Assembly: GCA_008632985.1 (NCBI GenBank) | Contig: QPGO01000101.1 | Span: 62,001 to 126,000, forward strand | Length of the DNA: 64,000 bases | DNA from: Psammoneis japonica | Taxonomy: Eukaryota | Reading direction: 5' to 3' | Shown here: piece by piece, positions 25,696 to 59,125 of the stretch | Numbering within the stretch: the stretch's first letter is position 1 | How the letters are laid out: the number at the start of each line of letters is the position of its first letter | The notes under the pieces: generated by a model | Databases searched by the model: none | Told to the model about the DNA's origin: nothing | The model's input: the letters and a program-made list of their open reading frames with translations, nothing else | Program-made: the position numbers and the translations under genes

Positions 25696-28417
25696 AAGAC
25701 TGGCCACATAGAAAGGTGCTAACGGAGCTCGAAATAGCTCGTATGGTCGATTTTGAGGTATGGATACCGATCGAAAGCTCTTGATCTCAGCTCTTCAGCG
25801 ATGTATGTGTCAATGGCTGGCAATGCTTCCTTGACATTTTATTAGCCATAAACTAAATTAACGGCTTGAATTGTTTACTATGAGTGTTTTGACCGTTGAG
25901 GAATTGCGCGAAATAACATACCAAGAAAGTCACGTACACAAGTTGTATAAAAGCATATAATTTTTAAGATTATATAAGTCTATACAAATTATTAAGCACT
26001 TAACATAAGGTTCGAATTTGAAATTCTCTTGGTGGAGGCAACAAGAGCAAAAGCAGAAGCGTCACAAAAAAAATGGCGCGGCCGAAACTAACCAAAGGCG
26101 TCAAGGACGATGAGGCGGCAGAAAAGTTCTACGATTGGCTTTCCGACCCTAACGAGTCTCCCATTTTCCATGAATGTTGTGTCCAGGTAACTGCAAAGAA
26201 ACCCACGAAATGTCAGTGTCTGCAGAAGCTGAGAGCAATGTTGGAGAACAACGACACCTCCGTCGTGAAAATGTTGAGCAACTGCCTCGTGTACTTTGAA
26301 AGACTGGGGTGCACAGAAACACATGCTACTTTTACATCCTGGATTAAATGTTCTACTTTCATTCAGAAGCATGCATGCAAGGGTGATTGTCGCTGCTTTG
26401 TTTTGCCGCTGTTGAAAACTGACGACAACGATGAGGAGGAGGCGGAGGAGGGGACGCCGCCGGATGATCATCTGGTCTGCTATGGTGCCCTCCTTGCATT
26501 GCCAGGCAAAGGGAGAAAGTTCTGGAGAACCGCCAAGTTGAGTGCAAAGAGCGGTGTCTTTCCGAAACATGGTCTCAAAGGGAAGACTGGGCAGAACGCG
26601 AACAAGACGCTTGCACCCGAAATGCACACAGCCCTTCACGCACATTTTGATGACATAAAGGAACTTTCTGAGCCACATGCAACGAGACTGGTTAGAGAAG
26701 AGACAGGTGTCGGCTTGAGAGATGAAGACACACACGACTCACCTCCCACCGTGAAAAAGCGTGGATTGTACAAACGGTGCGGACAAGAAAATGGTTGGAC
26801 CCTTAAATCGAACCACAAAGGCAAGTTTCTTAAGGCGGAACCAATCGAAGGAGAAGACCAGCAACCAATGTGCTCCTGGGCACAATTTTGCAAGTTCTGG
26901 AAAAAGAACTGTCCTGAAATTGTCGTGAGAAGGCCCACTCGTGACATCTGCGACGAATGCCACAAGTTCGCAAATGGCTTCAGGATGAAAGCAATGAAAG
27001 AAAAGACGGGGGGTGAGAGCGACGACAACGAGGATGAGGAGGAGGAGAGCGATGATGATGAAGAAGATGGAGCAGATGCAGAGGTGAGAATGAAAGAGAT
27101 TGAAGAACATGAAAATGAAACATCACACGCCGCAAAGCACGTCGAGTGGGCTCGAAAGCAACGGACACTCGTGCAACAGCACATTTCGGAAGCGATGGAA
27201 CACGCAAAAGCCGACAAGGCACACGGCGAGTGAACTTACGTGAGGATTGGTGGCTGTTGTCAAAATGGTGGGCTGCCACATTTTGGGGCGGATCAGCCAG
27301 GGGAGACGCACTGCTTCTCTCCTTTGACGATCAACATGTTTGGGGTTGCCGATCCTGTGGGGAAAAAAGTTGTGACGGTGACGGAAGATGAGTTCAAGGA
27401 TTTTTTGCATGCATGCATCTGCCATGAGGGCACTGGCCAAAAGGGAGGTGACAATGTTGCTTCCCTTGTGATGAAGCACTTGCATGATGGTGGATTGTTG
27501 GATGTCAGTGAGGGTCCAGGCGGAAAGCTCGTATTGATTTTTGACAACTGCATCGGGCAAAACAAAAACAACACGGCATTGAGACTTGCTTCTTGCATGG
27601 TGGAACAAGGACATTTCAAAGAAGTGAGCATTGTTTTTTTGATGAAAGGGCACACCAAGAATGCCTGTGACAGGCTCTTCAACAGCCTCAAGCAAACTTG
27701 CCGTGACAAGAACATCGGCATGTTCCGCAAACTCTTGACAGCCTTGGACACCTCCGAATGCGTTCAGGTCGTTGAAGCAAAGGAGGAGGATTTTGTGGGG
27801 CATGGAGCACATTTTGACCAACATTGCAAGAAGTGCAGCGCAGTTGCGAAGTGCCACTGCTTTGAAGTGACAGATTCTTCGGAACCTGCGGCAGTGACAA
27901 TGAAAGCAGCAGACGGTGAGCCAGAAGTTAGCGAGGATCTCAAGAAGAGGAAGACAGAATCGAGCGAGCAACGAAAACAGAACTTGCAAACGTCACAACC
28001 ACTTGCCTCAACAGCTCCAGGTGTCAAGGATGTCAAGAAGGTCGAGCTTTGTTCCAAGCATCGGCCGCTTCTTGACAAGGCAGACCAAGACGAGATGTGC
28101 CCTCATCCTGGAGACGACGTCCTCAATCGCGTTGCGAAAAGCAAGAGAGAGAAGCGGAAGAACAAGCAGGCGGAGAGCGCTGAGCAGATGGCGCGAAATA
28201 AGAAAAAGAAAACCGCCAAAGCCAATGCAGTTCTTTCGGAGAGGGACACAAATAAAAATTAACAGCAGTCCTTGTGCACATGCAAATTTCATGCAATGTT
28301 TTGTGTTGATGCTTTAATTGTTTGATGTCGCTCAAAAATCTTGTGAGTGCCATTTTCTCGAAACAAATTTTGAGAGCTCGAGAGCGCGCGTTAGCACCTT
28401 TTTATGTGGCCAGTCTT
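25696..28417 (+). mobile_element. Full-length Sola-superfamily (Sola1-like) DNA transposon
   Basis: 29-bp TIRs aagactggccacatagaaaggtgctaacg / cgttagcacctttttatgtggccagtctt (1 mismatch). 4-bp TSD aaat at 25692-25695 and 28418-28421, matching the AWWT target of Sola1. Internal transposase. Confidence 0.85.
26073..28262 (+). pseudogene. Sola-type transposase, interrupted by an in-frame TGA at 27231-27233 and TpA-eroded
   Basis: Two in-frame ORFs (386 and 340 aa). Motifs RPTRDICDECH, QPGET(HC)FSPL, HEG..QKGGDNVAS, FDNCIGQNKN and FLMKGHTKNACDRLF. Confidence 0.88.
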
Positions 28418-29342
28418 AAATGCAGCTACTTACATGATCTGTAGCGTCTGTACAAACACAGCTGTCTGTCCTTCATCAACAGGGTCAACTCGGATTTTGA
28501 GCACACAGAGACAGTGTGAGTTCAAAAGCAGCACATGTTGTCGCAAGCAGTCTGTAAATCAAACATTCAATGTGTAAAAGACCAAGGACTTCAAGTAAAA
28601 CAAAGGAGTGCAATCATGCAAAGTGAGATTTGTCACATCTCATGTCAAGTCAAACCTGGTTGCACAAGCGGCCAGTTGTTCTGCTGCACATGAAAGAAGA
28701 GTTGCATTGTGCCCGATTCTTCAGCCACTCATTTTTGGTCCTGCTTGTGCACTGCAATGTCAGAGACACTTGCACATGGTGCCCAGTCGTGCACTGGCAT
28801 CTGCAGCATTGGTGCTGCCGCTCCAACATTGAGCCCATGATGCTTGGCCCCTGACTTTTTGCCCTCTTGACCCAAACAAAAAATGAGAGGCTCCTTCAAA
28901 CTGCTTCAACACAAGTGGTCATTTTTCCTCCACATGCCGGACGAAGGTGGGTGCCAAACCGCTTGGCTTGTCTGTGACACCAAACAGCCTGTCTGTTGTC
29001 AACACATGACACAAAACAACAAAATGTCACATCGTTGGTTCAACGTTTGTCACAATCAAGAGGTGCCAACAAAGGGAGTCAGCTTTGCAGATTGTTGCCT
29101 GATGTCACTGAGGTTGCATGATGCTGTTGATGCAGCGAGTTTTGAGAACGGGAATGTTGTTGCGCACGACTCAAAGCATTGCGCGAAGTCGCGCATCCCA
29201 AAACTCAGCCCTCCCGACTACCGACACCGTATCCCGACTCCCTGCTCCCAATGAAAAAAAGATGAAACATGAGTTCCCCCAACCATTAAAAACACCCAAA
29301 CACCACAAACCACAAACACAACTCTTTGCCACACTTGAAACG

Positions 29343-30275
29343 ATGAAATGGACCATTCGACCTGCTGCTTTACATGCTGTCACGAAATGCTGCGATTTGT
29401 CATACTCCGGCCTCAAGGGACTCTATCGAAAAGACTGCCAAGTTGCAGAATCTGAGAACATCCAAGTTCTGCCAAGAGCCCCGCTGGCCAAAGTTCGGAC
29501 GCTCCAATGGAATGTGCACTGTTGGACTGCAGCGCACGACGATGATTCACCAGAGATTACAAACGGCATCACATCTGCTGTTCTTGAAGCAGATGCTGAT
29601 GTCATGGTCTTGAATGAATGCGCAATGTACAACAACACACAGGGTGCATCGCAAGTTCAGTTCGAAACAGAACTAGCTGGAAAGGGGCATGTCTGGCGTT
29701 GTGCCGACGTTACATTTCCAACCTTTGTGGCTGCACGGCATTACATTTTTCAAAGTGAAGAGGTTGGCTGGTGTGAGAATCGCAGCGCTTTGGTCCTGCT
29801 TGTTGGTCCGTCAGCCACATCGCCCCCTTGGGAACGGATCTGGGTCGTTGGAACACACCTGGACGATAGACAAGGCTCTACAAGACAGAAACAAATGAAA
29901 ATGCTGCTAGAACATCTCAACACAAAGACAAAGTCGTCTGACAAAATCATCTTGATGGGCGATTTGAATGAACCACGAACTCAAGATTACGAAACGGAAG
30001 AATGGATGTCCATGTTAGAGAGCAAAACGAAACGAGGCATTGATCCACGAATGGATGAACTGTCAAACATGCTGCAGCAAGCAGGACTCCACTGCGCATG
30101 GGATGGCAATCAAACGACAGATGACAAAAACTGGCTGACGCCTGATCCACCAGCAACCCATTGGATGGGGACGATCGTCGATTGTTCCTGTGGCAAACTC
30201 GTTGAGGCGATCCGTGTTTCTGTCAGTCCTGCAGGATGGTCGGATCATCGTATGACTGCATGTGACTGGAGCTGA
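29343..30275 (+). CDS. Endonuclease/exonuclease/phosphatase (EEP) domain protein, partly TpA-eroded, possibly a pseudogene
   Basis: Motifs LQWNVH, DVMVLNE, GTHLDD, ILMGDLN, THW.GTIVD and WSDH. ORF open. VDCSCG is probably derived from VDYSYG. Start chosen at the ATG at 29343. Confidence 0.75.
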   Translation: MKWTIRPAALHAVTKCCDLSYSGLKGLYRKDCQVAESENIQVLPRAPLAKVRTLQWNVHCWTAAHDDDSPEITNGITSAVLEADADVMVLNECAMYNNTQGASQVQFETELAGKGHVWRCADVTFPTFVAARHYIFQSEEVGWCENRSALVLLVGPSATSPPWERIWVVGTHLDDRQGSTRQKQMKMLLEHLNTKTKSSDKIILMGDLNEPRTQDYETEEWMSMLESKTKRGIDPRMDELSNMLQQAGLHCAWDGNQTTDDKNWLTPDPPATHWMGTIVDCSCGKLVEAIRVSVSPAGWSDHRMTACDWS

Positions 30276-30596
30276 TGTCTGTTTTGAAAAAATGAGGCAG
30301 AATCAACTTTTTGTTGCGACACAAAAGAGATTTTTGACCACAGGAGCACCTGTGTCAACCGTTGGAGAGTCCCTTTGTTTTGCATCAAAACTCAAAACAC
30401 CACGGGCGCGGAGCGAGCGGTGGATGGAGGACAGCATTTTAATTGGGAGTCGCCACCCGCCACGATAAACCGACTGCCGAGAAACCATTCCACGCTGATG
30501 AGCATTGTTGTGTGGCATTGTAGGAGGAGCAGAGACACTTCAAACGCACACACACAATTCTTGTTGAACTCCAAAAAGAAAAACTCCAACAACAAC

Positions 30597-33006
30597 ATGG
30601 CTTTTGTTCTCCATGATGCAAAGGATCTTGTGTGGCAAGACACCTTTGCCAAGCCGTCGCCGCAAAGGAAAAAAAAAAGCAGGGACAACTGAAGACAATG
30701 ATGGTCCACCCGAATGGTCGACATTGCAACAGCTTTTGAAAAAAAAACTCAATTACAGCAAGAATGATGACAGAAAAAAGCTCGTGTCAATGATTCGTCC
30801 TGAGGACGCCACTCACATTCCATAGATTCACATCGAATCTGGTGTCATCATGGACTGGAAAATCGCTCCATGTCGGATCTTACCGGAAAACCAAGGTGTC
30901 AAGTTGCAGGTCGTACATTGGATGATTTGCTGAGGGACATGATTCCTGCCATTTCCGAGGAATGCCGAAACGCGGCTGTCGACTGGGTCACGTCACCACC
31001 GCTCGTCCCTCCTGACTGCGTGTTTGAAACTGCTTTGGACCTCCAAGAAGACTGCCTGTTTCCCCTGCCATTGCCACTCCGAGTAGACCCGTGCGACGAC
31101 TGCTGCGCCAGCAGTGAGCATTGCTTTTTTGTGGAACTCCTCGTGACACGAGCCGATTTGTGTTCAAGATTGGGTTGCAAGATCAAGCCCAGTTTTTACT
31201 TGCCGGAACGAAATCAGGAAACCAATGGTTGGTTTGGTGGCTTGGAATGCACCCTCCGCCGTGTCGGAGTTCCATCACTGCAAAGTCTGTGCAAGGCAAT
31301 TCTGGACCACGATTGTTTCCACCCAGACGACAGTTTGTCAGTCAACGACGAAGAGCCCGGATCTGGTCCAAACGCGGCAGAGCAGCCGAAACAAAAGCGC
31401 TGGCATCAAGTTGTTGAACAAGATTTGCTACAACGCATGTCAAGTCGAATTCGATTACGTCAGCCGGTTGTTCTCCAGTGCGTGAAAGAAGTGCTCTATC
31501 ATGTCCGAGTCGCCATTCGTAGATTGGCAGTCAGCAAAAAGATTTGTTGGTTTACACAAGATTGGACCAACAACCCCGAGACGGCTGAACTGAACAGTTG
31601 GATTGTGACTGCTCTGGGTGGACAAGAGATTCTGGAGCAAAATGTCAAGGGCGGCAAACTGACATGGAAGCTAGCGTTTTCGGTGGGAGGCTCTCGAGAG
31701 CAAAAGATGTCTGGAGAGATGAAGCGACACGTGTTTGACGAAAGATGGCACCATTTTATGATGGATGTGTCTTGTTTTGTTGGAGAGTGTGCGCCTTCCA
31801 TTTGCCACGCTTCGGATTCGCCATGTGCCCATGTCGGAGGATCTTGCGCGGACAATGCTGACGCTGAAAATTGAAGGGGTGGAGCGTTGCGACGGGTCAT
31901 TTCAAGAGGAGCCGTACAAATCGTGGGCCGTTGTACGCGTGCCGGCGAACCTCAGTTTCTTTCAGTTGCACCGAGTTGTCACACAGACCATGAACAGCAA
32001 TGGCAGTGGTGTTCGAGCGACTCATGTCTGGAAATGCAAGAATTTTGCCAGCCGGTTTGAGACGCACTCTGTCGAACGCAAATTTCATTGCGTGCAATTG
32101 GGTGAAACGCACTTCACAGAAGACGGCCGCAGGGAAGATTGTGGATGTGACAGAGACGATTTGTTTCCTGGCGGAAATGCGTTGCGACAGCGAGTGTCAC
32201 GGACAGCTGCGCATTGCCACCAAGAAGTGCCGCTCTATTTCTCAGATTTTTCAAGTCTCTTGCCACAAGGAGAAAACGATTCTGTCAACAAAATCCGTGC
32301 GTGCATCCATTCAACATGCATCAATGCTGCTTTCTTTCATCCGGGGACAGAGGCGTGCCTCGAAGACGGCCTTGCTGCATGTTGTACAAAATGCAAGATT
32401 TCTTGCATGCGCATTGACCATCATGATGGTCCGCTCCCAAAGAAGCCTCACATCAATTCATTTCTTCCCAAGTGCTTGCGCGGGAAATCTGCTGACGACG
32501 GGGATGATTGGACAGTCGAAAACGCCAATGTGCAGCTCAGGCTTGATCGTGGGTGCCTGCGAAGGATTCCATGTAGAGTTGGCTCCAAAGACTGCATGCA
32601 GCAGATGCCGTGGTGTTGGACAGATGCTTTCTGGGGATTCCAAAGCGACGAGCATTTACGCAAGCCACTGGCAACAATGCTTGTCGGCTTGGACTCGAGC
32701 CCGATTTTTCTACACGGAGAGCCACCGCTGCCCCAATCCTCCCGGGGCAGCTGTGAAGCATGTGTCTCATTGTTGGATGGCAGGATTGATCCACATTTTC
32801 TTCAAGAGAATGTGGTTGATGACTTTGGGAATTTCTCTGTCCCTTTTCGTTGTGGTCAGAGATGCAGTTGGGATGGCGGTTTCAGCGATGGAGTTGTTGA
32901 TCCAGAGTTTGACGGTGCAGTGTGGGAGCGTGAGGTTGATGAGGAGATGCAGCAACGTGAAGATGCAAAGCAAGAAGCAAAACCCAAGTCTGGAGGGGCA
33001 AAGTGA
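30597..33006 (+). pseudogene. Decayed paralog of the 806-aa gene at 42227-44647
   Basis: Colinear over its full length. It has frameshifts (~30660-30700, ~30860, ~31825), an in-frame TAG at ~30823 and systematic Tyr to Cys/His replacement. Confidence 0.92.
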
Positions 33007-34396
33007 AAGGATCGAAATTGAGATGCCCTCATCAATGTCACACTGGAGTAAAATCATTTTAGAGGCTTTTGGATTCGCCATGTCGCAGTGTTTTCTTCTC
33101 AGTGTTGGCGTGTTCCAAAAGTGAAAGTAGATTGGAAAACAGGGGGGATCGGATTTAATTGTTAGATTCATTTGCAAGGCAACCGCACTGATTCTCTTGT
33201 TAACCCATGCCTGGACCTGCCACACTTTTCAGGTGAAAAGAGTCGGTCAAGCCACCATTGTGCACACCCGTGACTGCACGCAGCCTGAATTTCGAATGAT
33301 TGCTTTCCACCACAGCATGCAACCGCCCCATTTTTGCCAAATGCCCACATCAGTCAACTGACAGTGCACTGGTGTGAAGTCACACACACACACCTTTGGG
33401 GGCCCAGCTAGAATGGAGGTGAGTGTCAGTTGCTTGTCAATCACTGGAGTTTGGATCTCACTCTTGCCCATGTGACAGAGATTCATTTTCAAATGTCTGA
33501 CACCATGGAGAGGGGCACCTGTCAATTTTTTCAGGTGTGAGGGCGCTGTTTTGAAGAGCAGCACACTGACAATGCCAACCTCCCTGGCAATTCTGGCTCT
33601 GACAGGGGGGTCAAAGTTTGGCCAAAACTTGCAAAAAATGAGGAGTCAAGTGTGGGTCACACAGGATTTGCTGCTCTGGTGACTTGGGGCAGCATGATGA
33701 AGGGAGATTGGCTCTTTCTCAGTGCCAAGACCTGCCTTGCTGTGTGTTCTTTCCCCAGTCACCTGTTTTGCCAACATTGTGCTGTGCTTTTGCTGCAGCA
33801 GAAGGTCAGGGAGAATCTGACATGCACGTGTGATGCTGACTTTGCAGTTTTTGAGTGCTGCTGTTTTTCTTTTTCTTGTGTCTGCACCTGATGATCAGCT
33901 TGAGCTTCTGGAGAAGAGGGGTGGAGCGACGCATCTTGCAGCCCTGTTGCAAAGCAAAAGCACTGCACAACTTCAGATTTGTTGACTTTGCTGTGAAGAA
34001 AATGCATCACCAAGGAGGAGGGGGGGCTCTGCAGATCTGGATGTCAAAAGTCTTGTTCAAGGAAACTTCTGTTGCCCCAGCTCTCCAGCAGCAGCAGCCT
34101 GGCAGCTGGCTGCAAGCCCCCACCCACAGCCATGAGCACTGTGGTGCCAACCTGACAACCCTTGGAGGTTTGCAATCTGCAAGCAGCACCTGCTTGCAAC
34201 AAGCTTGCAGCAGCAGCCTCACCACACCTGAAAAAGCTGCTAAAGCCACTGTCCAGGTGGAGGCTGAAAAGAAACACAAAGTGCAACAAGTGCACATGCA
34301 ACCTTGTTTCAAAGTGAGCATGGGGCTTGCACTTGTGTGTTGATGCTGTGTGGCAGCTTGTTGGATTTGGCTCAAGCAGAGGCAGCTGGTCACACT

Positions 34397-34630
34397 CTTG
34401 TCATTTTTGCACCATGCCAGGCAGCAGCAGAATGTAGAATGTTGTCATCTTGGCACCTTGACAGTCAACTTCCCTCTGTGTGCCACAGCACCAAACAGAG
34501 CATGTTGTTGAGCACAGCAATTTTTGCGCTCTTGTCATTTTTGCACCATGCCAGGCAGCAGCAGAACATTGTGTCATCTTGGCACCTTGACAGTCAACTT
34601 CCCTCTGTGCCACAGTCCAAACAGAGCATG
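34397..34630. repeat. Tandem duplication, ~133-bp period
   Basis: tcttgtcatttttgcaccatgccaggcagcagcagaa...tcatcttggcaccttgacagtcaacttccctctgtg occurs at 34397 and 34530. Confidence 0.9.
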
Positions 34631-36058
34631 CAGAGCACAGCCATGTTTGGGCTGCGAAACAAGCAAAGGCATGCTTTGTGCTGTCTGCTTTTGTGTTTTG
34701 AAAACCCATGTGTGTGTGGCTGTGCTCCCCATGCACAAAGGCACACCATCAGAGAAGAGCACAGCTCTGCATGAAAAAAGCATTGAAAGCTTTGTTCAGT
34801 GTGTGGCTCAACAATTGTGCCACAAAAAACCCCACAAAACATTGGCCCGAAAGTGTGCAATGCAGAAAAGTGATGAATTTTTTGCTCTGAGAGACACCCC
34901 GCATGAGGGTGTGTTCTTTGAACTGGAGATGCCAGCGCACATGTGACATGCAATGCTGGCTGCAGCATCAACAATTTTTTTCATGCTGCACCATGTGTGA
35001 AAAAACATGTCAAGGTTTCTGCTGCTTTCGACAATGTTGTCATTTTTTCCAGAAGCCATGAGCACCACAAATGTGATGTTTTGACACATCATTGCTGGTT
35101 GACATCAGTGCTGATGACATTGATTGAAACATCATGCTTGCACTGTCCAGGAAACAACAGCCGACAACTTTGTGAGGGTGTTGAAAAAAGGCCACGAGAC
35201 TGCTGCCACTGACAATGACCCCCAGAAGCCTCAAAACAGGTGTGTGCATCATCTTGCTCACACCCACACTGACATGCTGAGTCTTGAGTCATGGTTGGAG
35301 ATTGCTTCAAGGCCTTCCACAGAACACAGTGGAAAGAAAATGACATGACCCAAGTTGCAAACTGCAAAGTTGCTTCTCTGTCATGCCATCCTTTTGCTCT
35401 GCTGCCGGCAGGTTGGCAAAGAAGCTGGCCAGCTGCACGCTGCATGGGGACACCCCTGACAAGAGCTGGGCTGTGGGCTTTTCTCCATCTTTTTGTCCCC
35501 GATTGCACCCCCGCGCCCACCCAAAAGAACTGGCAGCACCAGCAGAAAGTGGGCGTGCTTGCGTGCCGCACACACAAACCCAGAAGAGCCATTTCATTGC
35601 CACTCGTGTTCATGTTGGGTGCCGCCACATGAGTGTCATCATGCCTTGCGTGCAGGTGCCCCCGCGCGGACACACAAGAATTTTTTGACTCCCTCCGACA
35701 CGCGCTCGCTAAAAAAACCCGAAAAACGACTCCGGATGGCATCTTGTCGTTGATTGCAAGCAATTGGACGATTGTCGTGATGGTTTGACCAGTCGGAAAC
35801 GCTGCGCTAGTCCCTGAGATTGTATCACTTGAAGGTCTTGCAAAGATTTGAAGAGACACTCGAGAAATCTGCCAGGATTTGTTGTGCTTGGATGTCACTG
35901 AAATGCTGCACTTTTCTGTGCAATTCATTCTTTGTCGCATCTCCATCTTCCTCCCTTGCAGTCGCACCCATCTGTTCTGGTGATTCAGCATTGCACAGGC
36001 CATTGCGTGGCTTGAGCAGGCTGCAAGCAGATGAGACATTGTGTTGTGAAAAAACAAA

Positions 36059-37233
36059 ATGGCCAACAACATCGATTGTGCCACTGCAGCCCAGTGCGGA
36101 CTTGCTGTCAATGACAATGGTGGAATGTGTGAATGTGGGAGGGCATGTGGCATCGAGAAGAAGATCGAAGTTCAGAGGGTCTGTCAATCGCTGCAAGACA
36201 TGTCAGAGAGTGGGGCAGGCCAAATCTAACAGAAGTCGCTTGGGTTTGCAGGGTTGACCGCAAATTTGCAGTCAAAGTGGAGCGAGAACTTGACTGTTGT
36301 GGCCAAGTGCTTCACCCGCAAAAGATTCACCAGAAACGAATGCATGGTCCAGGCATCAACACAATTGACAGTCTAGATGCTTTTGTCCTTCTGACTCCAC
36401 ATCTGGACGAGCCAAGTCACTCGCTGTCCAACCATCGGGAGAATCTGTGCAACCTTGCAGGAGCAGTGGTTTCGAACGCTGCCATCAGCAGATTCTGGAA
36501 TTGTGCATTTCCAATCAGTGGGAAACTTTGCAAGCCAAATCTCATTCCCTGTGATAAATTCAAACCCGACAACATCCTACGAGCGTGCGAGTTCACAATG
36601 GTTGTCGCCAAGGTTGATCTGTGGAGGGTCAAATGCGGAGATGAGAAGCTGCTGAAAGGTTCAGAAGTGCATTGCCGAAGGACAAGGCGAAATGCACTGA
36701 CGGGGGAAGTCCCACCATCCTTCACATCCTCTGATTTTTGCAACACATGCCCCGTCATCGGCTTTTGCTGTGTCGACACAAGGACCCACCCAGTGCATTG
36801 CCGGGTCCATGATGAGCCGAATGATGTGGAACAGTTTGCAATGGAGATTGAGCATGCAGTGCATCGGGGCTTTCTCAGAGGCAGTGACATCCTTGTTCTA
36901 GACAATGCAGCCTGCCACGTGCATGGTGAAAATGCGGTTCTTGAAGAATGGCTGTGGATGGAGCATGGCACATTTGTTTTGTTTCTTCCAACGAGGACCC
37001 CTGAATGGAACCCTGCAGAACTTGTGTGGTGTCAACTTGTGACACAGCTCAAGTGCCATCCGATCCGCAGGCTCCGCTTGCACACCGAGCATTCCACCGC
37101 CTGTGCTGCCCATGACGTGTCACCCCACATTGCGCATGACCAAGTCTTCCGCATGTACAGAGCATGTGGACATGTGTCTCAAGCTCATTCTGTGATAGAA
37201 TGCTCTGCTGTGGAATGCCCTACAATGGACTGA
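36059..37233 (+). pseudogene. IS630/Tc1-family DDE transposase (DD38E spacing), TpA-eroded, frameshift near 36205
   Basis: KCGDEK, LVLDNAACH and FLPTRTPEWNPAELVW, with 38 residues between the second D and the E. The N-terminus MANNID...VNDNGGM is in another frame from the ATG at 36059. Confidence 0.88.
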
Positions 37234-37389
37234 GATGCAATTGAAACTTCTGGGCCCCAGGCATGTGACACACAGAGTCGTTCTGTGCCAGGAAACACGT
37301 GCGTTTTCCCGCAAAAAATGTCTCTAAAAATTGATGCCACTTTGCCGTTACGACATTGGATCCATTCGATTCAAATTGTTGATCCGAAA

Positions 37390-37580
37390 AATACGGCAGT
37401 TAGACTTTCACCCCGGCGAGAGCCACAAAACACGCAAGATGTGAGCATTGTCGGTTTCCCATCCTTTAAAACAATGTCTTGCAAGAATGGAGTGGGCATG
37501 TGTTGTTCATGGTGCCAGGTGTTTGAACATGAAACTGGCTTTTCGCGGAGCACTGTCACACGAGAAAGTGCAAGGGACGA
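37390..37580. repeat. Dispersed ~190-bp repeat, copy 2 (copy 1 at ~8670-8860)
   Basis: Direct alignment with 8670-8860. Confidence 0.75.
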
Positions 37581-37850
37581 TGCGATTTTCAGTGACAGAT
37601 CCACAACTGATGGAGTTGGATCTAGATTGAGACACCTGAATGGCGCAATGGTGACAAGATGCAAACATGGTCACCAGCACAGAGAGTCTTGATTGGTTTC
37701 AAAAGCATCAAGTGGGTTCACGCACGAGTTCTGCAGAAATTTGTCTTCAAACATCCATGCCTTCACGTCCAACAGAAGCATTGTTCAAAGCAACATCCTC
37801 GTAGACTTGCAAACTTTCAGACTCGTTGGACAATGAGAAGGATGGTGCAG

Positions 37851-40006
37851 TCAATGCAGGACGATTCTTTGGAGGACCAGGGAAGGAATGTGGCCCCACG
37901 CCATTTTGAAAGGAATTCTCCTCGCCGTCACCATGGCAGCTCTCTTCTCCTGCACGCTGTTTTCATCAGAATGCACGGGCTCTTTCTCATGTTCTCCATC
38001 GTGCCCTCCATCACATCCATGGGAGCTGCAATGATCATGGGAGGATGAGCTGGGAGGTTGGTTTTGGTTGTAGTGGCGATCGTCTTTGCAGCCACTAGAA
38101 GCAGTGACACGGTGCCTCTCTTCTTGATCACCCGTGCTTCGGCCAGACCGACTTTGATTGCGGCAAGAGATGCTGTCAGAGCAACTGTGCTCCCTGTCAC
38201 TGGCGCAAGTGCTCTCACCGCGGCGAGAGACACTGTCAGAGCAACTGTGCTCCCTGTCGCTGGTGCGAGTGCTCTCACCGTGGCAAGAGATGCTGTCAGA
38301 GCGACTGTGCTCCCTGACGGGTTCCAGTCCCAGGTGGGACTCCGTGTGACATTGGGCCCGTAGAATTCTACGTGCGAGCTCCGTAGTACGAGAATTTAAA
38401 TTAATGAATGTGTTTGTCTTCAACATCAAATAAACTGCCAAGTTTGTGGTACAATTATGCCTCTTGCCACTCGACGTTTTTGCAAATGCGCCTGCCCTAC
38501 GCGATTCTTAAGACATTATAGAATCGCGCTGTAACAAAAAATGTCAAAAGTTGTTGGACGGATCGCTCAATAAGTGTACCGTAAAATGACACAAAATATC
38601 GAAAAAATCACGTAGAAATCTACGTGCGCGACATACGACGTGATTCAAAAAACTATCGATGTCACAGTTCAGTAGTGCGAGGTCCCACCTAGACCTGGAA
38701 CGCGTCCCCTGTCACTGGTGTGAGTGCTCTCACCGCGGCGAGAGATGCTGCGACGGCGGTGAGAGCGAGAGCGACTACGAGAGCGACTGCGACGGCGGCA
38801 AGAGCGAGAAAGATTGTGGTGGCGATGGGAATCACTGCAGTCACTCTCACCATCGCCAGAGCTTGGACTGCGGCAAGAGTGGCTGCGGCCTCCACTCCCA
38901 TGTCCTCTCGAATGACCACGACGACTGCTGCTGTGGCGTTGATTGCGGGAACGACCACGACGCCTTGTTTGTTCTTGGCAATGGGAATCATCAGACTGCC
39001 TCTGACCATGTGGCATTGGATGCCCGGAGCCAAGCTTTTTGAGGAAGAAGAGAAAAGGCCAGTGAGTGGAGTCAAAGAAATCAAAAAGAAATGAAAGACA
39101 TGAAAGATGCATGAACGCAGCAAAGCAATGACACGATGCTCACAACAAACTGCCCATTGGAAGCATGCAGTGATTGCATGCGTTCCTTCTTTGCATCTAA
39201 AGCACTCTTCTTCTCCTGCTTTTTCGAGTCAACTTTGATTTGCTCTTTCACCCTGAATTCTTTGACACGCAACAGGCTCACTTGTTTCTTCTTTTCATGC
39301 ACGTTGTCCTGCGAGGCATTGTTGCTGGAGCTCTTGTTCTTCCTATTGGATTCTTTGGCTGCTGCAAGCTGCTGTTGCAATGACTCGATTTGGTCATTCT
39401 TTCTCTTCAAATCCTTTTCCACACTCTCCAGCTCCTTCTTGTCTCGTCGCGACTGCTCAACCGCGGCATTCTTTGCGCTCTGAATTTTGCAGAACTTGTT
39501 TTGAAGTGTTGCCTTTGACTGGGCCATCTTGACAAGACTGCTGTGCATGGACTTCATGTTGTTGCACATGGAATCGACAGATGTGGCCGCTGCTGCCTCC
39601 AAGTGTCCATGGCTGTTGTGCTTTTCCACCAAAGTCTTCTCCAATTTTTCAATGCACTCGTTCGCCAGCATGACTGCACTTGTGCAGGGGGCAACCTTCT
39701 TTCCCCTTGGCTTTGTGACAGTGCCCGGCAAGTCCTTCTTGCAAAGCTTGTTCTGTTTTGGAGGCAGCAGTGCAGCTTCTGAGGCAGTGCAGGAATGTGA
39801 TCGGGTGCAGGGATTGACGGTGGTGTCGGTTCGGTTTCGGCGCGCGTCGGAACTTCAGCCCTTTCTCTTGGTGGGTCCCACTCTGGCGACACTGTTGATG
39901 AATCTTGTGACATGATGTCATCATGGCGACTTGGAGCCATTGCCCGAGGGGCGTGGGAGTGCGACGAGCCGCCGCCGGCTCTCATTCGACTGAGTTTGTT
40001 TGTCAT
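37851..40006 (-). pseudogene. Decayed gene encoding a coiled-coil followed by an Arg/Ser-rich repetitive tail, interrupted by a MITE
   Basis: Lys/Glu coiled-coil (ORF 39081-39731), a probable eroded intron donor gtgagc near 39140, then RSRSRSRSHRRRS. The 60-bp coding repeats (SRRGEST..SDREHS.SDS) continue on both sides of the 38317-38705 insertion. Confidence 0.6.
38317..38705. mobile_element. 389-bp MITE-like insertion, TpA-rich
   Basis: Imperfect TIRs acgggttccagtcccaggtgggac / gtcccacctagacctggaacgcgt. Flanks tccctg / cccctg (6-bp TSD with 1 mismatch). It splits one unit of the host 60-bp repeat (ctgtgc tccctg tcactgg). Confidence 0.75.
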
Positions 40007-40171
40007 GGCGTCGTTTTTGTGCTTTTTTTGTGCGTTGCGGTGAGCGGAGCGACTGCAGAAAAAAATCGACGTTCGCGCGGGGGCACCTGCGCGCAAGGCA
40101 TGACAACACAAAATGCAAGAACTGACAAAGGTGTGGGCTTTTCACGATTGCAATCCACAACAGTCCAAGCA

Positions 40172-42026
40172 CACCCCTGTGGCAGGGGAGAACATGGTGA
40201 TGTCATGGTTACGTGGCAGTTCATGTCTTGTTCATCACATTTTTGTGCAAATGTCCTCACATTCATTTGTGCATTTGTGCACAAATGCTGACAGTGGCAG
40301 GAAAAATCCTGAACCACATTCTCCCCTAAAACTCTAACCACCAAAAACCGAGGGGTCGGAAGCGCACTTTTGGGAGCTCTTTTTTCTCCGCACAAAAAAC
40401 ATGCATTTCGTCGACTCAACCATGACGACCTCCCGTTCTTCATCCCCCACACCACCTGACGCATCCCCGCCTGCCATGTCTGATGCGGCAGTCCCTCCTG
40501 TGTTGGCCGGTGCCGTTGCACCCGCTGTCGTTACCCAAACACAGCCGATTTGCCATCCGGAGGATTTGGGCTTCTGTTCGCCGGATCCTGTGCCTGAAAC
40601 ACAAACACAGCGCCGTGATTGGTCTACTCCTGTCATTGCGTCCCCGGAGAAACTGGATTCTCGTTCGCACCGCCGTGTTGTGGAAGGTGCTGATGAGCCT
40701 TCTCTCAAACGGTCTGGGGTGCAGCTCCGAAACCAGGTCAAAAAACAAAAGCAACAAACCGACGTCAAGGTTCAGTGGGCATGGCAGAGGAGCATCTATG
40801 ACAGGAGGTGTGGTGACAACCTTTCTCAGGATGATTGTTCCCAAGCAGAACCTTGTCTGTCTGGAGGTGATTGAGACTCACCCAGAGCCCAGCGGAACCA
40901 ATTGGAGCCAACAACAAGTGTCAAGATGAACCGCAGCAACATGTGAAGGAGGACGTAGCCAATGGAATGCGGCCAGAGAAGGTGCCGGCATGCAAAGTGG
41001 CAGCATGGCTGTCGACAAGGCACTGGTTTTGAAGGTCTGACAGTGACAAACACAGCGAGCATTTGCCAAAAGCACGTTGCTGCCTGCCTCCATTTTAGCA
41101 ACATGCAAAAACAGCACGTTGTGCATCACATGTAGAATTCAAACGGCGAGAGTGGCCTCTTATGGAATTGCACACAATGACCCAGTCCTGGAAAATGGAG
41201 CAGTGTCCAAGTCACATGCACCATTTGAAACCTTGCCAAGTCGCCTGCAAACAAATGCCAATTCGCTGACCTCTCCAACTTGAAACTAAAAAACTGTGAA
41301 AGCATGCCTGCCATCTAATTGTTGTCAGGTTTCTAATTTACAGAGAGCTGCACAATGTGTCTGTGTGTTCTAAAGATTGGACTGCACTCGAGAGCTGACC
41401 AAGAGGCACCATTCATGTCCATTGATGTGTCGTCCATCAGCAGGCCGTGGTTGCGTGGGTTTCCTGGTCCGCCGTCATCCGTCATCCATTGTGTTCCTTC
41501 CAAAGCAAAAACAACAACAGTGTCAACAGCAACTGCAGTGGCAAGGGCAGGATTGACAGTGTCGGGCATGCTAGGGGGCCGAAACGCAGGTACGGCGTTG
41601 GAATTCATGACAGCATCTGTGGGAGGTGGTGGAGCGTGCAAACAACAGTGTGAGTTTGTAGCATCTTATTTTGTACGTGTCACACCCACGAGAACCGGAA
41701 CAATGACATTGCCTGTTGCATCAGTGTCATTGGCAACGGTGTCAGTAGGATCGGCGTCCTGGGAAGGCGATGGGGAAGAACCACGAGGCATCATCATGGT
41801 CGAGTCGACGAAACGCGTGTTTTTTGTGCGGAGAAAAAGAGCTCCCGAAAGTGCGCTTCCGACCCCTCGGTTTTTGGTGGTTAGAGTTTTAGGGGAGCTG
41901 TGGAATAGGAATTTTTACTTATGGAATATACACATTCGTGTGGATATTAACATTAAAACTCAACGCACGGCGAAGCCGTGCGCGCACAACCACGCACACA
42001 CACACAGCTCCCCTACCACAGGGGTG
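40172..42026. mobile_element. Non-autonomous MULE/Mutator-like element, 1855 bp
   Basis: Perfect 9-bp TSD gtccaagca (40163-40171 and 42027-42035). 19-bp termini cacccctgtgg(c/t)aggggag. A near-identical inner inverted repeat of >100 bp (~40321-40425 versus ~41793-41897). Confidence 0.85.
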
Positions 42027-42226: not shown

Positions 42227-44647
42227 ATGTCTCTCGCTGACTTTAGTGGCTCAAAGAATCTTTTATGGGAAGACCTTTGCACATCCGCTGCCGCCCTGAT
42301 GCTTCGCCGCGGCATTATCCAACCAGGGACGATGACGGATGATGGGCCACCCGAAACATGGACATCCAAACAGCTTGGCAAAATGATGAGATTGGACAGG
42401 AACAATGACAGAAAAGAGCTCTTGTTGATACTTCGTCCCGAGGATGCAACTCACATTCCTCAGATTCGTATCGATTCTGCTGGTGTTGTTGTGGACTGGA
42501 ATCGTTCCATGACGGATCTTACCGGAATACCGAGGTGTCGTGTTGTAGGCCGCACATTGAATGACTTGCTGCAGGACATGATTCCTGCAATATCCGAGGA
42601 ATATCGAAATGCAGCTATCAACTGGTGCTCGTCTCCACCGCTCCGTCCTCAGTTTGGCTATGATGCAGAAGATCTCAGAGAAGATTGTCTCTTCCCTCTG
42701 CCTCTGCCGCTGAAAAGAGATGACTCTGTCAGCAGCGATTATTGCTTTTTTGTGGAACTCCTAGTGACACGAGCCGATTTTTATTCAGACTTAGGTTATA
42801 CGTTTAAGCCTTGTCGTGACCTGCCAGAAAGTAATCAGGAAACTTCTGGTTGGTTTGGTGGCGTGGAGTATACCCTCCGCCGTGTAGGCGTACCCTCCTT
42901 ACACTCGCTGTGCAAGTCAATTCTTGACCAAGATTGTTTCAACCCAGATGGTAGTTTGTCAGCCAATGACGGATCGTCGTCTCAAGGTGAAAACGTAGCT
43001 TTGGAGCTGCCAAATTGGCGGTATCCAATTGAAAAAGAATTGCTGCAAGGCATTTCAAGTCTCATTCGATTGCGCCAGCCGGTCGTTCTCAAGTACATGA
43101 GAGAAGTAATCTATCATGTACGATTTGCCACACGCAGATTGTCAGTCAGCAAGAAGATTTATTGGTTTACACAAGATTGGGCCCAAAATGCCGAAACTGC
43201 ACAATTGAACAAGCTTGTTGTAAAGGCTCTGGGTGGAGACGAGATTGTCGAGCAAAATGTCAAGGGCGGCAAATTAACTTGGAAGCTAGCATTCTCGGTA
43301 GGTGGCTCTGATCAAAAGCAAAAGAAAGCTGGAGAGTCGAAGCGGGACGTTTTTCAAACGCACTGGGACCATTTTGTCCAGGCTATATCCCCTGTTATTG
43401 GGGAGTGTACGCCTCCCATTTGCCAAGCTTCAGATACGCCGTGTATGCTGCCCATGTCGGAGGATCTTGATCGGACAATGCTTACGCTCAAAATTGAAGG
43501 GGTGGAGCGTTGCGACGGATCATTTCAAGAGGAGCTTTACAAATCGTGGGCCGTTGTACGAGTGCCGGCGAACCTTAATTTCTTTCAATTGCACCGAGTT
43601 GTCATACAGACAATGAATTGCAATGGCCGTGGTGTTCGAGCGACTCATGTCTGGAAATTCAAGAATTTTGCCAGCCAATTTGAGACATACTCTGTCCACC
43701 GCAAATTCCATTACGTTCAATTGGGTGAAACTTACTTCACACAAGATGGCCGCAGGGAAGATTATGGATGTGACAGAGACGATTTGTTTCCTAGCGGAAA
43801 TGCGTTGCGACAGCGATTGTCGCGCACAGCTGCGTATTACGACCAAGAAGTGCCGCTCTATTTCTCGGACTATGCAAGTCTCTTTTCACGAGGAGAAAAC
43901 GATTCTGTCAATAAAATCCGTGCGTGTATCCATTCAACATGCATCCATGCTGCATTCTTTCAACCGGGGACAGAGGCGCACCTCGAAGATGGCCTTGGTA
44001 AATATTGTACAAAATACAAGATTTCTTGCATGCGCATTGACCATTATGATGGCCCGCTTCCAAAGAACCCTCATATCAATTCATTTCTTCCCAAGTGCTT
44101 GCGCGGGAAATCTGCTGACGACGGGGATGATTGGACAGTCGAAAACGCCAATTTGCAGCTTAGGCTTGATCGTGGCTGTCTACGAAGGATTCTATGTAGA
44201 GTCGGCTCCGAAGACTGCATGCAGCAGATACCGTGGTGCTGGACAGATACTTTCTGGGGATTCTTCCAGAGCGACGAGTACTTACGAAAGCCACTAGCAA
44301 CTACGCTTGTCGGCTTGGACTCGAGCCCGATTTTTTTACACGGAGAACCACCGCTGCCCCAATCCTCCCAGGGCAGCTATGAAGCATATGTCTCATCGTT
44401 GGATGGTAGGATTGATCCACATTTTCTTCAAGAGAATGTAGTTGATGACTTTGGGAATTTCTCTGTCCCTTTTCGTTATGGTCAGAGATCCAGTTGGGAC
44501 AGCCGTTTAAGCGACGAAGTTGTTGATCCAGAGTATGACGGTGCAGTGTGGGAGCGTGAGGTTGATGAGGGGATGCAGCAACGTGAAGACACAAAGCAAA
44601 AACCAAAACCCAAGTCTGGAGGGACAAAGCGAAAGGATCAAAGTTGA
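42227..44647 (+). CDS. 806-aa protein with an N-terminal PAS-like domain and a central pRiA4b-ORF3/MM3350-like domain
   Basis: Intact single-exon ORF with normal TpA/Tyr content. PAS-like IPQIRIDSAGVVVDWNRSMTDLTG..RVVGRTL. pRiA4b-like LTLKI...WAVVRVPANLNFFQLHRVVIQTM...HVWKF and PKCLRG. Domain calls are by eye. Confidence 0.85.
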   Translation: MSLADFSGSKNLLWEDLCTSAAALMLRRGIIQPGTMTDDGPPETWTSKQLGKMMRLDRNNDRKELLLILRPEDATHIPQIRIDSAGVVVDWNRSMTDLTGIPRCRVVGRTLNDLLQDMIPAISEEYRNAAINWCSSPPLRPQFGYDAEDLREDCLFPLPLPLKRDDSVSSDYCFFVELLVTRADFYSDLGYTFKPCRDLPESNQETSGWFGGVEYTLRRVGVPSLHSLCKSILDQDCFNPDGSLSANDGSSSQGENVALELPNWRYPIEKELLQGISSLIRLRQPVVLKYMREVIYHVRFATRRLSVSKKIYWFTQDWAQNAETAQLNKLVVKALGGDEIVEQNVKGGKLTWKLAFSVGGSDQKQKKAGESKRDVFQTHWDHFVQAISPVIGECTPPICQASDTPCMLPMSEDLDRTMLTLKIEGVERCDGSFQEELYKSWAVVRVPANLNFFQLHRVVIQTMNCNGRGVRATHVWKFKNFASQFETYSVHRKFHYVQLGETYFTQDGRREDYGCDRDDLFPSGNALRQRLSRTAAYYDQEVPLYFSDYASLFSRGENDSVNKIRACIHSTCIHAAFFQPGTEAHLEDGLGKYCTKYKISCMRIDHYDGPLPKNPHINSFLPKCLRGKSADDGDDWTVENANLQLRLDRGCLRRILCRVGSEDCMQQIPWCWTDTFWGFFQSDEYLRKPLATTLVGLDSSPIFLHGEPPLPQSSQGSYEAYVSSLDGRIDPHFLQENVVDDFGNFSVPFRYGQRSSWDSRLSDEVVDPEYDGAVWEREVDEGMQQREDTKQKPKPKSGGTKRKDQS

Positions 44648-45231
44648 GATGCTCTCATCAATGTGACGCTATCATAGTTTGTGTAACGCCTTTTGATTTT
44701 GATGAAGGTGCATCATACACAGAGTCATGTGTTGTACTGCATCACTCTGCGGATTTTGTCGCATTTTGGATCCTTCACGACACTACGTATCAATATAACC
44801 TGGAGTAGCCATCTCCAGTTTTCCTGGATGAATTTTCTTACTCAGGAAGAACAACTTTCAGCACGTGTCACTCGCGACACCGCGTATAAATATAGCTAGC
44901 TATTTCCACTTTGCAGTGACGAATCTCCTCTCTCACGACAAATAGCTTCCACATACACCGCATTCGGAAAGGTATGCCATGCCGTACTCGGAGGCTCAAT
45001 CGGGAGCAAGGCTACAATACAATACAATCCGATCCGATTTCGATTCGCACAGCAGAATCAATAGATCAGTTCAACTGTCCTCATTTTCGTTTCAAGTGTG
45101 CTGTACAAGTTCAGGATTTATCACATTCGCTTTGCGACACTACTTTGCTATTGTGTACCGGCGTAAAGATGTTTCTTAATGCGCAATTGCGCAGCATGTA
45201 TCTCTTCTCGTATAGCCTTGTGCTCGAGAAC

Positions 45232-46842
45232 CTAAAATTTGACGCCACTGTATATGCCTGGCGACTGACCGAGCTCCTGGGCCGTGGGAAACCCCTGCGG
45301 AACTTGATTCTTGATGCAGCATCCGAAAATACTAAAATTTGGGCTCGCATTTGGGTCAACTGCACTGTACCCCGCACATTCCGACATGGCACTGCACAAG
45401 TCTTGGCAAACAGGATTGGCATCATCGATCGATCGAGCAAAGCCAAGAGGAATGCAAGGAATAAAAAGATCATTGCCAAATATGTCTGTGGACGGATATG
45501 GAAGATAATTAGCCTGAGGAGATGGGCAAGAAGATGATGCAGAAGTTTTGATGCCACTCCTAAATCCTCGTTGAGGAGATTCCGACGGAACAGTGTCCTT
45601 CAAAAAACAAATATCTTTGACGCCATCAAATGTGAACGATCTACACTCAGGGTGCGCAACACAAAGATCCTTGCATTCTTCAACAGCATCGTAAAAATCC
45701 ATGTCCAATGGGATTCCAATGAAATCACCTCCAGACAAGTTCTTGAACCCTTCGGGCATTGTGAATCCACAGTATGTTGGCAGTGTTGGTTGAGGGGTAG
45801 TAGGCTGAGGCGTGGGCGAAGGAGTCGAACCAGGAGTGGAAGGAGGCGTCGGTATAGGAGTGGAACCAGCAGTTGAATCAGGAGTCGGACGAAGCGTCGG
45901 TTTTGGAGTCGAACCAAGGCTCGGAGAAGGAGTAGGTTCAGGAGTCTGGGATACTCCAGGACCAGTTCCCTGATCAACAACAGTGCTGCTCTTGGAACCG
46001 TCATCATTCCCAAGAACGAGTGTCATTGCGATTGCAACTCCTACCGCCACCAATACCAATAGAATGGCTCCACCAATCATATAGATCCTTCGGATGTCCC
46101 GTCTACTTGCCATGTCTTCGCTTGGAGAGGCGACTACTAGCACCGGCTGTTCTTGCCGATCTCTTGCTGAGTCGACTACTCTAGCGCTCAACAAGATTTC
46201 AGGGTCGTCACCCCGATTGTCAAAAGACGGTGGTTGCTCAATATCGGGGGTAGCGGGTGGTGGCATGGACCGTGGCATGGGAGGCGTCATGGGAGGCGGC
46301 ATTGGACTGTGCCCCGGTCCTTGCACGGCTACAGCGCCAGGAACCGCTGTAGCTCCGTGAGAAGCAGTACGAGACGCAATGAAAGCTGGTTGAGCACCAG
46401 CGGCGGCGGCTTTGTCCAATGAGACGCCTGCAATTGGCGTTTCATTCGACTCGGGCTTCTTTACATTCGTTGGTGGTGGTCCTTGGACCACTTCAGCTCC
46501 TGGTACAGCGCGTGAAATGCCGTCTACCGGTTGGTCGTCAGCTGCGCTCGGTGGTGGGTTATTGCCGGACGATGGAAGCTCTTGTGCTTCCTTCTCGTCC
46601 TTGTGGGCTCTCTCTTTCCGATCAATGGCGTGTTCACGTTTCAATGCGTCTTCTTCGGTATGATTTATCCATGGGACGTGGCTTGGAGACTCTTCCGCGG
46701 ATTCGTCTTGAGATGACTTGCATTGCTTCGCATCATCGCCATCATGTTCCTTGACTGACTCAGTTTCACGATTAGACGACGACGACGCTTGTGTCTCTTC
46801 TTCCTCGCCAGCAGGCGACTTTGCGTCATTGTCAGAAGCCAT
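45232..46842 (-). CDS. Single-pass (type II) membrane protein with two PAN/apple domains, paralog 1, 536 aa
   Basis: Disordered N-terminus with PGAVAV motifs, TM IYMIGGAILLVLVAVGVAIAMTLVL, Pro/Thr stalk. PAN patterns GGDF...EECKDLCVAHPECRSFTF...CFLK and GNDL...CQDLC...EC.GY...CCIK. Confidence 0.88.
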   Translation of the reverse strand: MASDNDAKSPAGEEEETQASSSSNRETESVKEHDGDDAKQCKSSQDESAEESPSHVPWINHTEEDALKREHAIDRKERAHKDEKEAQELPSSGNNPPPSAADDQPVDGISRAVPGAEVVQGPPPTNVKKPESNETPIAGVSLDKAAAAGAQPAFIASRTASHGATAVPGAVAVQGPGHSPMPPPMTPPMPRSMPPPATPDIEQPPSFDNRGDDPEILLSARVVDSARDRQEQPVLVVASPSEDMASRRDIRRIYMIGGAILLVLVAVGVAIAMTLVLGNDDGSKSSTVVDQGTGPGVSQTPEPTPSPSLGSTPKPTLRPTPDSTAGSTPIPTPPSTPGSTPSPTPQPTTPQPTLPTYCGFTMPEGFKNLSGGDFIGIPLDMDFYDAVEECKDLCVAHPECRSFTFDGVKDICFLKDTVPSESPQRGFRSGIKTSASSSCPSPQANYLPYPSTDIFGNDLFIPCIPLGFARSIDDANPVCQDLCSAMSECAGYSAVDPNASPNFSIFGCCIKNQVPQGFPTAQELGQSPGIYSGVKF

Positions 46843-48601: not shown

Positions 48602-48674
48602 CGGACTGCCCGACTGCCCGACCCCCCAACCCCCCGACTGCCCGACCCCCCAACCCCCCGACTGCCGGACCGAC
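48602..48674. repeat. C-rich 8-bp-unit tandem repeat (ccgactgc/ccgacccc/ccaacccc) with 24-bp higher-order period
   Basis: ccgactgcccgaccccccaacccc is repeated twice, with partial flanking units. Confidence 0.85.
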
Positions 48675-56320: not shown

Positions 56321-56402
56321 ATCTCTTCTCGATAGCCCCCGCAGCACTCGAGAAAACAAAATTTGACACCACTGTATGTCCCTGGCGACTGACCAAGGTC
56401 CT
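56321..56402 (-). pseudogene. 3'-terminal fragment of a fourth PAN-gene copy
   Basis: aaatttgacaccactgtatgtccctggcgactgaccaaggtcct duplicates the gene 3' end. Its flank (~55960-56320) matches the flank of paralog 2 (~49985-50270). Confidence 0.75.
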
Positions 56403-56503
56403 CTAGTAGACTTTGCTAACTATTATCTGTTGGCGTTAAGATGTTTCTTAATACGCAATTGCGCGGTATGTATCTCTTCTCGTATAGCCTCGTGCTCGAG
56501 AAC

Positions 56504-59118: not shown

Positions 59119-59125
59119 TATAAAA
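59119..59125 (+). promoter_or_regulatory. TATA box
   Basis: tataaaa about 42-48 bp upstream of the ATG at 59167. Confidence 0.45.

Follow-up and report, generated by a model that had tools for sequence, protein, structure and literature searches.

A 64,000-nucleotide stretch of DNA from the diatom Psammoneis japonica (GenBank assembly GCA_008632985.1, contig QPGO01000101.1, positions 62,001 to 126,000 of the forward strand; here called the window, with positions counted from its first letter) contains two copies of a PAS-domain gene, one of which has Cys or His at most positions where the other has Tyr. The question raised by this locus is which process could alter one member of a gene pair so selectively. 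The altered copy, copy A, occupies 30597..33006 on the plus strand, and its counterpart, copy B, lies at 42227..44647 on the same strand. We propose, with a probability of roughly 0.75, that copy A is located in a ~14-kb, probably silent stretch under region-limited hypermutation from A:T to G:C that is specific for the dinucleotide TpA (TA below). Sequence comparison makes evident the direction of the change, its dinucleotide specificity, its occurrence in both orientations and its independence of codon phase. The same holds for its regional extent, which covers three unrelated coding sequences as well as non-coding DNA and spares intact genes and the non-coding DNA adjacent to them.

The window has a G+C content of ~0.48 and zero N over its 64 kb. 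Copy A was characterized by blastn, MAFFT alignment, codon reading and comparison with contigs from a public sequencing run, termed X1. Copy B is an intact open reading frame (ORF) of 806 amino acids with a PAS fold at residues 76-117. By blastn, the two copies are 83.4% identical over 2293 columns (30767-33038 versus 42405-44664); in the MAFFT alignment their ATGs at 30597 and 42227 are paired, and global alignment gives 83.8% identity over 2235 ungapped columns. Copy A harbors two frameshifts, of +2 bp at 30859 and -5 bp at 31826, a TAG at 30823-30825 where copy B has CAG, and an early TGA at 33004-33006, five codons ahead of the copy B stop; neither frameshift involves an indel relative to the X1 contigs. 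Based on these lesions, copy A is a pseudogene, the dead paralogue of a diatom PAS-domain gene. Database relatives of copy B number 24, with 36-54% identity among those of full-length architecture, and include MMETSP transcripts and proteins labelled Skeletonema, Cyclotella and Mediolabrus. The family is diatom-wide and has no assigned function.

The loss of Tyr was assessed by a codon-aware reading of the alignment in the copy B frame. The 27 Tyr residues of copy B correspond in copy A to 14 Cys, 6 His, 1 Gln, 3 Phe and 3 Tyr. The original prediction, made by hand, had put the change at about 21 of 26 Tyr to Cys or His, with 3 kept and 2 replaced by Phe; the recount of 20 of 27 bears this out, and all nine peptide examples quoted with that estimate are present (9/9). 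The change extends to TA dinucleotides in general. Among the 80 aligned TA of copy B, 11 remain TA in copy A, 33 have become TG, 21 CA and 15 something else, in comparison with 1585 of 2146 kept for the remaining 15 dinucleotides, each of which is retained at 64-86% (Fisher p = 4e-28). TA of copy B is paired with TG or CA of copy A at 54 sites, and the reverse is seen at 6 (binomial p = 1e-10). Both TG and CA outcomes occur, and the inequality between them (33 versus 21) has p = 0.13. Since TA was kept about equally in the three codon phases (3/27 in phase 1-2, 4/27 in phase 2-3 and 4/26 in phase 3-1), the loss is not specific for Tyr, in agreement with the earlier statement that TA sites outside Tyr codons change alike.

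The same specificity was found when substitution rates were sorted by neighbor. On both strands, the A>G rate is 0.35 after a 5' T, 0.094 after C, 0.068 after A and 0.05 after G. The G>A rate in the pair is flat at 0.048-0.091, and therefore there is no general G+C drift. Transitions from A/T in copy B to G/C in copy A number 128, and the opposite ones 68. GC-biased gene conversion was rejected on the same grounds: A>G outside TpA proceeds at the rate of G>A. Selection against TA as the target site of Tc1/mariner-type elements would be too weak per site, since 86% of the TA of the pseudogene was removed while other sites diverged by 9-24%. CpG was largely kept in copy A, as had been claimed (83 of 116), and its exchange is symmetric, with 19 CG>TG/CA changes versus 21 in reverse; TA loss and CpG loss are thus separable. 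The net loss of CG to TG/CA that is the hallmark of 5-methylcytosine decay is absent from copy A and present only in other tracts of the window.

The two halves of the pair differ in identity, with 75.6% in 30770-31832 and 91.0% in 31833-33030, which reflects either gene conversion of the second half before the loss of TA or uneven constraint on copy B. Despite this difference, TA loss is equal in both halves (4 of 40 kept in the first and 7 of 40 in the second).

The direction of the change was determined with eighteen diatom homologues aligned to copy B. At 15 of the 20 sites where Tyr became Cys or His, at least 9 of the 18 outgroups have Tyr, Phe or Trp, and at several of them (sites 126, 290, 503, 597 and 718) 17 or 18 of the 18 do. 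Cys or His at these sites is never found in more than 4 of the 18. The density of TA is 34.7 per kb in copy B, 8.4 in copy A and 24-34 in the other intact ORFs of the window, confirming that only one copy was hit hard. The TA of copy B fall evenly into the three codon phases (27/27/26). In three metagenome contigs from relatives (16.0, 6.0 and 2.5 kb), which encode homologues of copy B, the number of TA stays within 29-60 for each full 1-kb segment, and the last 493 bp of one of them (L003) has 32; these contigs serve as a TA baseline only and are silent on the presence of the process in those organisms. Because the outgroups have Tyr and the TA density of copy B equals that of other genes and of the relatives' contigs, the aligned sequences establish that copy A lost TA, that copy B did not gain it, and that Tyr is ancestral.

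Copy A is part of a larger pattern. Over the whole window, the observed/expected (o/e) ratio is 0.24 for TA and 1.55 for both TG and CA, and ~35.0 of the 64 kb are TA-poor. The TA-poor tracts have 1.4-2.9 TA per kb, mostly with an o/e of 0.14-0.34 for CpG and of ~1.8-1.9 for TG/CA, at a G+C of 0.47-0.52. Seven TA-normal islands have 30-48 TA per kb and a CpG o/e of 0.9-1.0; they overlap the intact ORFs plus their non-coding flanks, and non-coding DNA beside intact genes has 18-60 TA per kb. The ~14-kb domain that holds copy A (26920..40983) has 0-24 TA per kb by sub-tract, with the exception of one islet. CpG is kept in some of its sub-tracts (o/e 0.7-1.0) and lost in others (0.34). The surroundings of copy A are intermediate, with 6.5-18 TA per kb and CpG kept, and two sub-tracts, 26920-28110 and 38824-40983, are nearly TA-free with a CpG o/e of 0.69-0.74. 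As these sub-tracts keep CpG without TA, the two losses are separate processes. The TA-poor segment downstream of copy A, 33005-35674, has single-copy read depth.

The islet within the depleted domain (38212-38823, 612 bp) has 40.8 TA per kb and a CpG o/e of 1.24, and no ORF, tRNA or Rfam match explains it; the tRNA and Rfam scans of the window gave no matches. A 128-bp inverted repeat of 90.6% identity (40302-40428 and 41791-41916) spans position ~40984, where the TA-poor domain gives way to the TA-normal island with copy B.

Erasure of TA also affects how the DNA appears to gene finders. In the tracts, TAA and TAG occur 1.09 and 0.82 times per kb, and TGA 22.7 times. The window contains 120 stop-to-stop frames of at least 130 amino acids, and 81 of them lie mostly inside TA-poor tracts; only two of these 81 have solid Pfam matches (DUF7869 and DDE_3), and there are four weak matches below the cut-offs. 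Long open frames in the victims are explained by the fact that a change of TA to TG or CA never makes TAA or TAG and erases existing ones. The two long ORFs that copy A retains, along with a 376-amino-acid frame in another phase, and the open frame of its upstream neighbor are attributable to this removal of TAA and TAG.

This neighbor is an open 385-amino-acid ORF of the endonuclease/exonuclease/phosphatase (EEP) family at 29118..30275 on the plus strand, directly upstream of copy A and unrelated to copy B. It is partly depleted, with 14.7 TA per kb. At the four columns where 9 of 9 homologues have Tyr, it has Cys at three, and at the seven columns with Tyr in at least 5 of 9 homologues, it has 3 Cys, 1 His, 1 Leu and 2 Tyr. 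Cys or His replaces the conserved Tyr 168, 191, 356 and 358; at 168, 356 and 358 (TGC, TGT and TGT) the ORF is the sole deviant of ten sequences, and the remaining invariant residues are unchanged. The EEP gene at 59086-60345 was considered as a paralogue of this ORF and rejected (BLASTP E = 0.55). Likewise, a TA-depleted, transposase-like ORF of 342 amino acids matching Pfam DUF7869 (27234..28259, plus strand) has 4 Cys and 1 His at the five columns where 13-14 of 14 homologues have Tyr, and retains a single Tyr in 342 residues in comparison with 9-18 in its homologues. The domain additionally holds a multi-copy DDE_3 transposase remnant (36133..37230, plus strand), in a tract poor in both TA and CpG, with a depth of ~250-690 versus a baseline of ~60.

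A natural control is provided by a tandem triplet of PAN-domain paralogues on the minus strand (45157..58161; ORFs 45232-46866, 50273-51742 and 56504-57904). The three genes lie in islands 45157-47122, 50084-51653 and 56166-58161, each of which is TA-normal, and the tracts separating them are poor in TA and CpG. At 82-85% identity, the paralogues keep 50-59% of their TA, symmetrically, and 69-73% of other dinucleotides.

These neighbors bear on the alternative that survives best, although we consider it unlikely, namely that repeats are detected as in repeat-induced point mutation (RIP) and mutated at TpA, so that copy A was struck as the paralogue of copy B. Copy A is indeed a duplicate, and the DDE_3 element of the same domain is multi-copy by depth. 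In two TA-poor repeats of 79-87% identity, 9628-10761 and 16483-17651, TG of one copy is paired with CA of the other at 18 of 226 TG/CA sites. Such discordance fits hits that came after the copying and struck a shared ancestral TA or CG independently, on opposite strands of the two copies; however, the PAN pairs are also ~4% discordant between TG and CA, and this count therefore discriminates weakly. A duplication trigger is contradicted by copy B, which is untouched, and by the three PAN paralogues. The EEP-family ORF was hit though it has no homologue within the window, the depletion reaches more than 1.6 kb upstream of the start of homology to copy B, and the single-copy tract 33005-35674 is depleted too. 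Because the EEP-family ORF, the DUF7869 ORF and single-copy tracts were hit, and the PAN triplet and copy B were spared, copy A seems to have been hit for its location in the 14-kb depleted domain and not for being a duplicate. The original prediction that a duplicated host gene, beyond transposons, is targeted is consequently retained in part. The data support the effect on host-derived genes, and the implied role of duplication as the attractor falls with the same EEP-family, DUF7869, single-copy and PAN observations.

Somewhat less probable again is an untargeted process, in which a genome-wide bias of TA (and CG) toward TG/CA empties neutral DNA and purifying selection keeps TA in genes. 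This would account for the coincidence of TA-normal islands with intact ORFs, and TA is the least conserved dinucleotide among the PAN paralogues. It does not account for the non-coding DNA adjacent to genes, which is rich in TA (59.9 per kb at 44648-45231, 37.3 at 57905-59085 and 24.1 at 40984-42226). In addition, copy B has as many TA in the largely synonymous phases 2-3 and 3-1 (27 and 26) as in the phase of the Tyr codons (27), and the tract borders look sharp at a scanning window of 300 bp.

The reality of the TA-poor sequence was examined with X1, one public accurate-read run of the same organism, from which contigs were built with exact 31-mers at a k-mer depth of ~60. Its platform is not on record and it is perhaps from the assembled sample itself, and its support is thus not fully independent. 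Of the sampled words of copy A, 92% are present in X1. The contigs differ from the window by 7 substitutions and 3 one-base indels over 29000-31514 (2515 bp), by none over 31516-32481 (966 bp), and by one each over 32915-34424 (1510 bp) and 34580-35681 (1102 bp). The one-base indels (30496, 30669 and 30738) lie a short distance before the well-aligned part of copy A and represent assembly errors or allelic differences. All eight differences listed for single-copy contigs are transitions that swap TA or CG with TG/CA, and four of them involve TA (29404, 30497, 31250 and 33049); as a hint from a small number, these fit a process that is still running.

The X1 comparison makes it very unlikely that modified bases at TA and CG of silent DNA were misread as TG/CA by a long-read base-caller. 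Both dinucleotides are palindromic and plausible modification sites, and the three indels hint at a long-read assembly, but contigs of exact 31-mers at this depth match the TA-poor sequence, including that of copy A, which noisy reads could not reproduce. The opposite polarity, in which copy B and other genes would have acquired their TA through RIP-like C>T change of CA/TG, with copy A ancestral, could draw on a pairwise alignment that alone gives no direction, and is refuted by outgroups with Tyr, Phe or Trp rather than Cys or His, by an intact ORF in copy B where RIP makes stop codons, by a TA density of copy B equal to that of other window genes and the relatives' contigs, and by the EEP-family and DUF7869 ORFs as sole deviants versus 9 and 14 homologues.

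Under the reading of region-limited hypermutation, TA would be converted to TG or CA according to the strand struck, presumably by an enzyme or base modification acting on TpA in a particular chromatin state. Two chemistries are candidates: adenine may be deaminated to hypoxanthine, which has been proposed for the chlorarachniophyte Bigelowiella natans (Mettrop et al., bioRxiv 10.64898/2026.01.13.699255), or thymine may be oxidized to a derivative that pairs wrongly with G. As TA reads the same on both strands, A>G and T>C look identical in the sequence. Copy A and the EEP-family ORF may have entered this state later than the tracts with ~2 TA per kb, since their depletion is only partial and their CpG is still in place.

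The flanks of surviving TA were compared between the TA-poor tracts (33,980 bp) and the TA-normal islands (24,157 bp). Flanks of the TA remaining in tracts are strongly non-random (chi-square p = 1e-17). Relative to normal density, CTAG, TTAA and CTAA/TTAG survive at 22-26%, and ATAT, GTAC, ATAG/CTAT and ATAC/GTAT at 0-2%. RTAY (R, purine; Y, pyrimidine) is nearly gone from the tracts, and YTAR survives about tenfold better. This suggests that the target is wider than the TA dinucleotide, and the pattern fits two independent half-sites, each favored by a purine 5' of T. The gain of asymmetric sites in the tracts, a measure confounded by CpG decay, is 23.9 per kb for RCAR/YTGY and 8.4 for RTGR/YCAY; in the A/B pair, R[T>C]A / T[A>G]Y accounts for 17 asymmetric outcomes and fails for 9 (p = 0.17). 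It is suggestive only that the base pair beside the favored flank might be the one that changes. A broader and tentative proposal, which we hold to be more doubtful than probable, is that the silent chromatin of diatoms may have, in TpA, a second palindromic dinucleotide of the 'mark and decay' type. A dedicated enzyme that deaminates or otherwise modifies a TpA base on both strands and prefers R-T-A-Y, shared with chlorarachniophytes and possibly old in the SAR group (stramenopiles, alveolates and rhizarians), would then erase TA from silenced DNA, including host genes, independently of CpG methylation.

Several points weigh against the proposed hypermutation. The silence of the domain is something that we infer. 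The targets in B. natans are integrated viruses in which TA has persisted, whereas the loss here is near-complete and often joined by loss of CpG, and the two processes may differ. Of the 81 long tract ORFs, 79 lack a solid Pfam match, and a transposon or foreign origin of most tracts is unproven. Finally, a TA-poor tract is absent from the three metagenome contigs of relatives (24.5 kb in total).

One consequence concerns annotation, as two of the three stop codons are lost in TA-erased DNA, and gene finders may over-call there. The process shows no tie to duplication, and host genes within the affected domain are eroded. Region-targeted A:T>G:C change at TpA has been described once so far, in the 2026 preprint on a chlorarachniophyte; the footprint is far stronger in a diatom, which belongs to another branch of SAR, and the process may be widespread or old. 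If a dinucleotide-specific DNA adenine deaminase or thymine modifier is responsible, it would be relevant to genome defence, to the evolution of mutation rates and to base-editing tools. If the 'mark and decay' proposal were true, silent DNA would fill with long open frames, and this would imply a naturally occurring, sequence-specific editor that acts on A:T of double-stranded DNA.

Several known systems can be compared with that in P. japonica. RIP in Neurospora and other ascomycetes depends on duplication and mutates both copies, converting C to T at CpA, so that TpA and stop codons arise and the A+T content increases. Like RIP, the process in the window introduces transitions at a specific dinucleotide, disables transposons and gene duplicates, and strongly skews the dinucleotide composition. 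Unlike in RIP, TA is destroyed, stops are erased, G+C is steady, one copy is spared, and sequence that has single-copy read depth or lacks a second copy within the window is hit. C>T at CpA with creation of TpA is not what we found, as TA was lost according to the outgroups, and neither are duplication-dependence and mutation of both copies, with copy B normal, the PAN genes spared and the EEP-family ORF hit. The account of RIP draws in part on PMC7296669. A closer formal parallel is the decay of CpG, by which deamination of 5-methylcytosine in methylated DNA turns a palindromic dinucleotide into TG/CA; here, too, such a dinucleotide is lost to TG/CA in probably silent DNA, and CpG decay is present beside TA loss in most tracts. 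The dinucleotide is a different one, and copy A loses TA with symmetric exchange of CpG.

ADAR enzymes hyper-edit A to G in double-stranded RNA and prefer U/T 5' of the edited A. To our knowledge, they act on RNA and in animals only, and their edits could be fixed in DNA only via retro-copying of one strand. The A>G change with a preference for 5' T is alike. The loss in copy A differs in having both orientations (33 TG and 21 CA), and flanking DNA is affected. The restriction to one strand and to the transcribed unit expected from such a retro-copy is not seen, as neighbors and non-coding DNA are depleted. The comparison with ADAR is also drawn in the B. natans preprint (10.64898/2026.01.13.699255).

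The closest counterpart is the TpA-specific hypermutation of integrated giant-virus and virophage DNA in B. natans. As described in the main text of that preprint (10.64898/2026.01.13.699255), mutation-accumulation lines acquired 231 mutations in two regions of integrated viral DNA, of which 230 were A>G or T>C changes, without exception at TpA; an ADAT2-like adenine deaminase is put forward by the authors, and TA-poor coding sequences of B. natans are enriched in DDE endonuclease and reverse-transcriptase domains. In the same main text (10.64898/2026.01.13.699255), the words 'diatom' and 'CpG' both have 0 occurrences, and in the literature covered, with subscription journals outside its scope, we found neither TpA depletion nor TpA hypermutation reported for diatoms. 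In so far as that source describes it, the B. natans process shares with the present one A>G/T>C change almost only at TpA, discrete regions, and depletion of TA with gain of CA and TG. The A/B pair has both the restriction to TpA on either strand and the excess of A>G/T>C transitions, and the window has the confinement to discrete regions, with the flanks of intact genes keeping TA. As for foreign targets, the tracts hold two transposase-like ORFs and also two host-type genes. In contrast to the rhizarian, as far as the preprint describes it, the organism here is a diatom, and the mutations are inferred from sequence rather than seen de novo. TA makes up 3.3% of the target dinucleotides in B. 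natans versus ~0.2% in the tracts, which cover about half of the window, and the process in P. japonica strikes host-derived genes and is accompanied by CpG loss in many tracts. Relative to B. natans, the P. japonica locus thus adds near-complete erasure, host genes among the victims, a frequent yet separable loss of CpG, and a flank preference.

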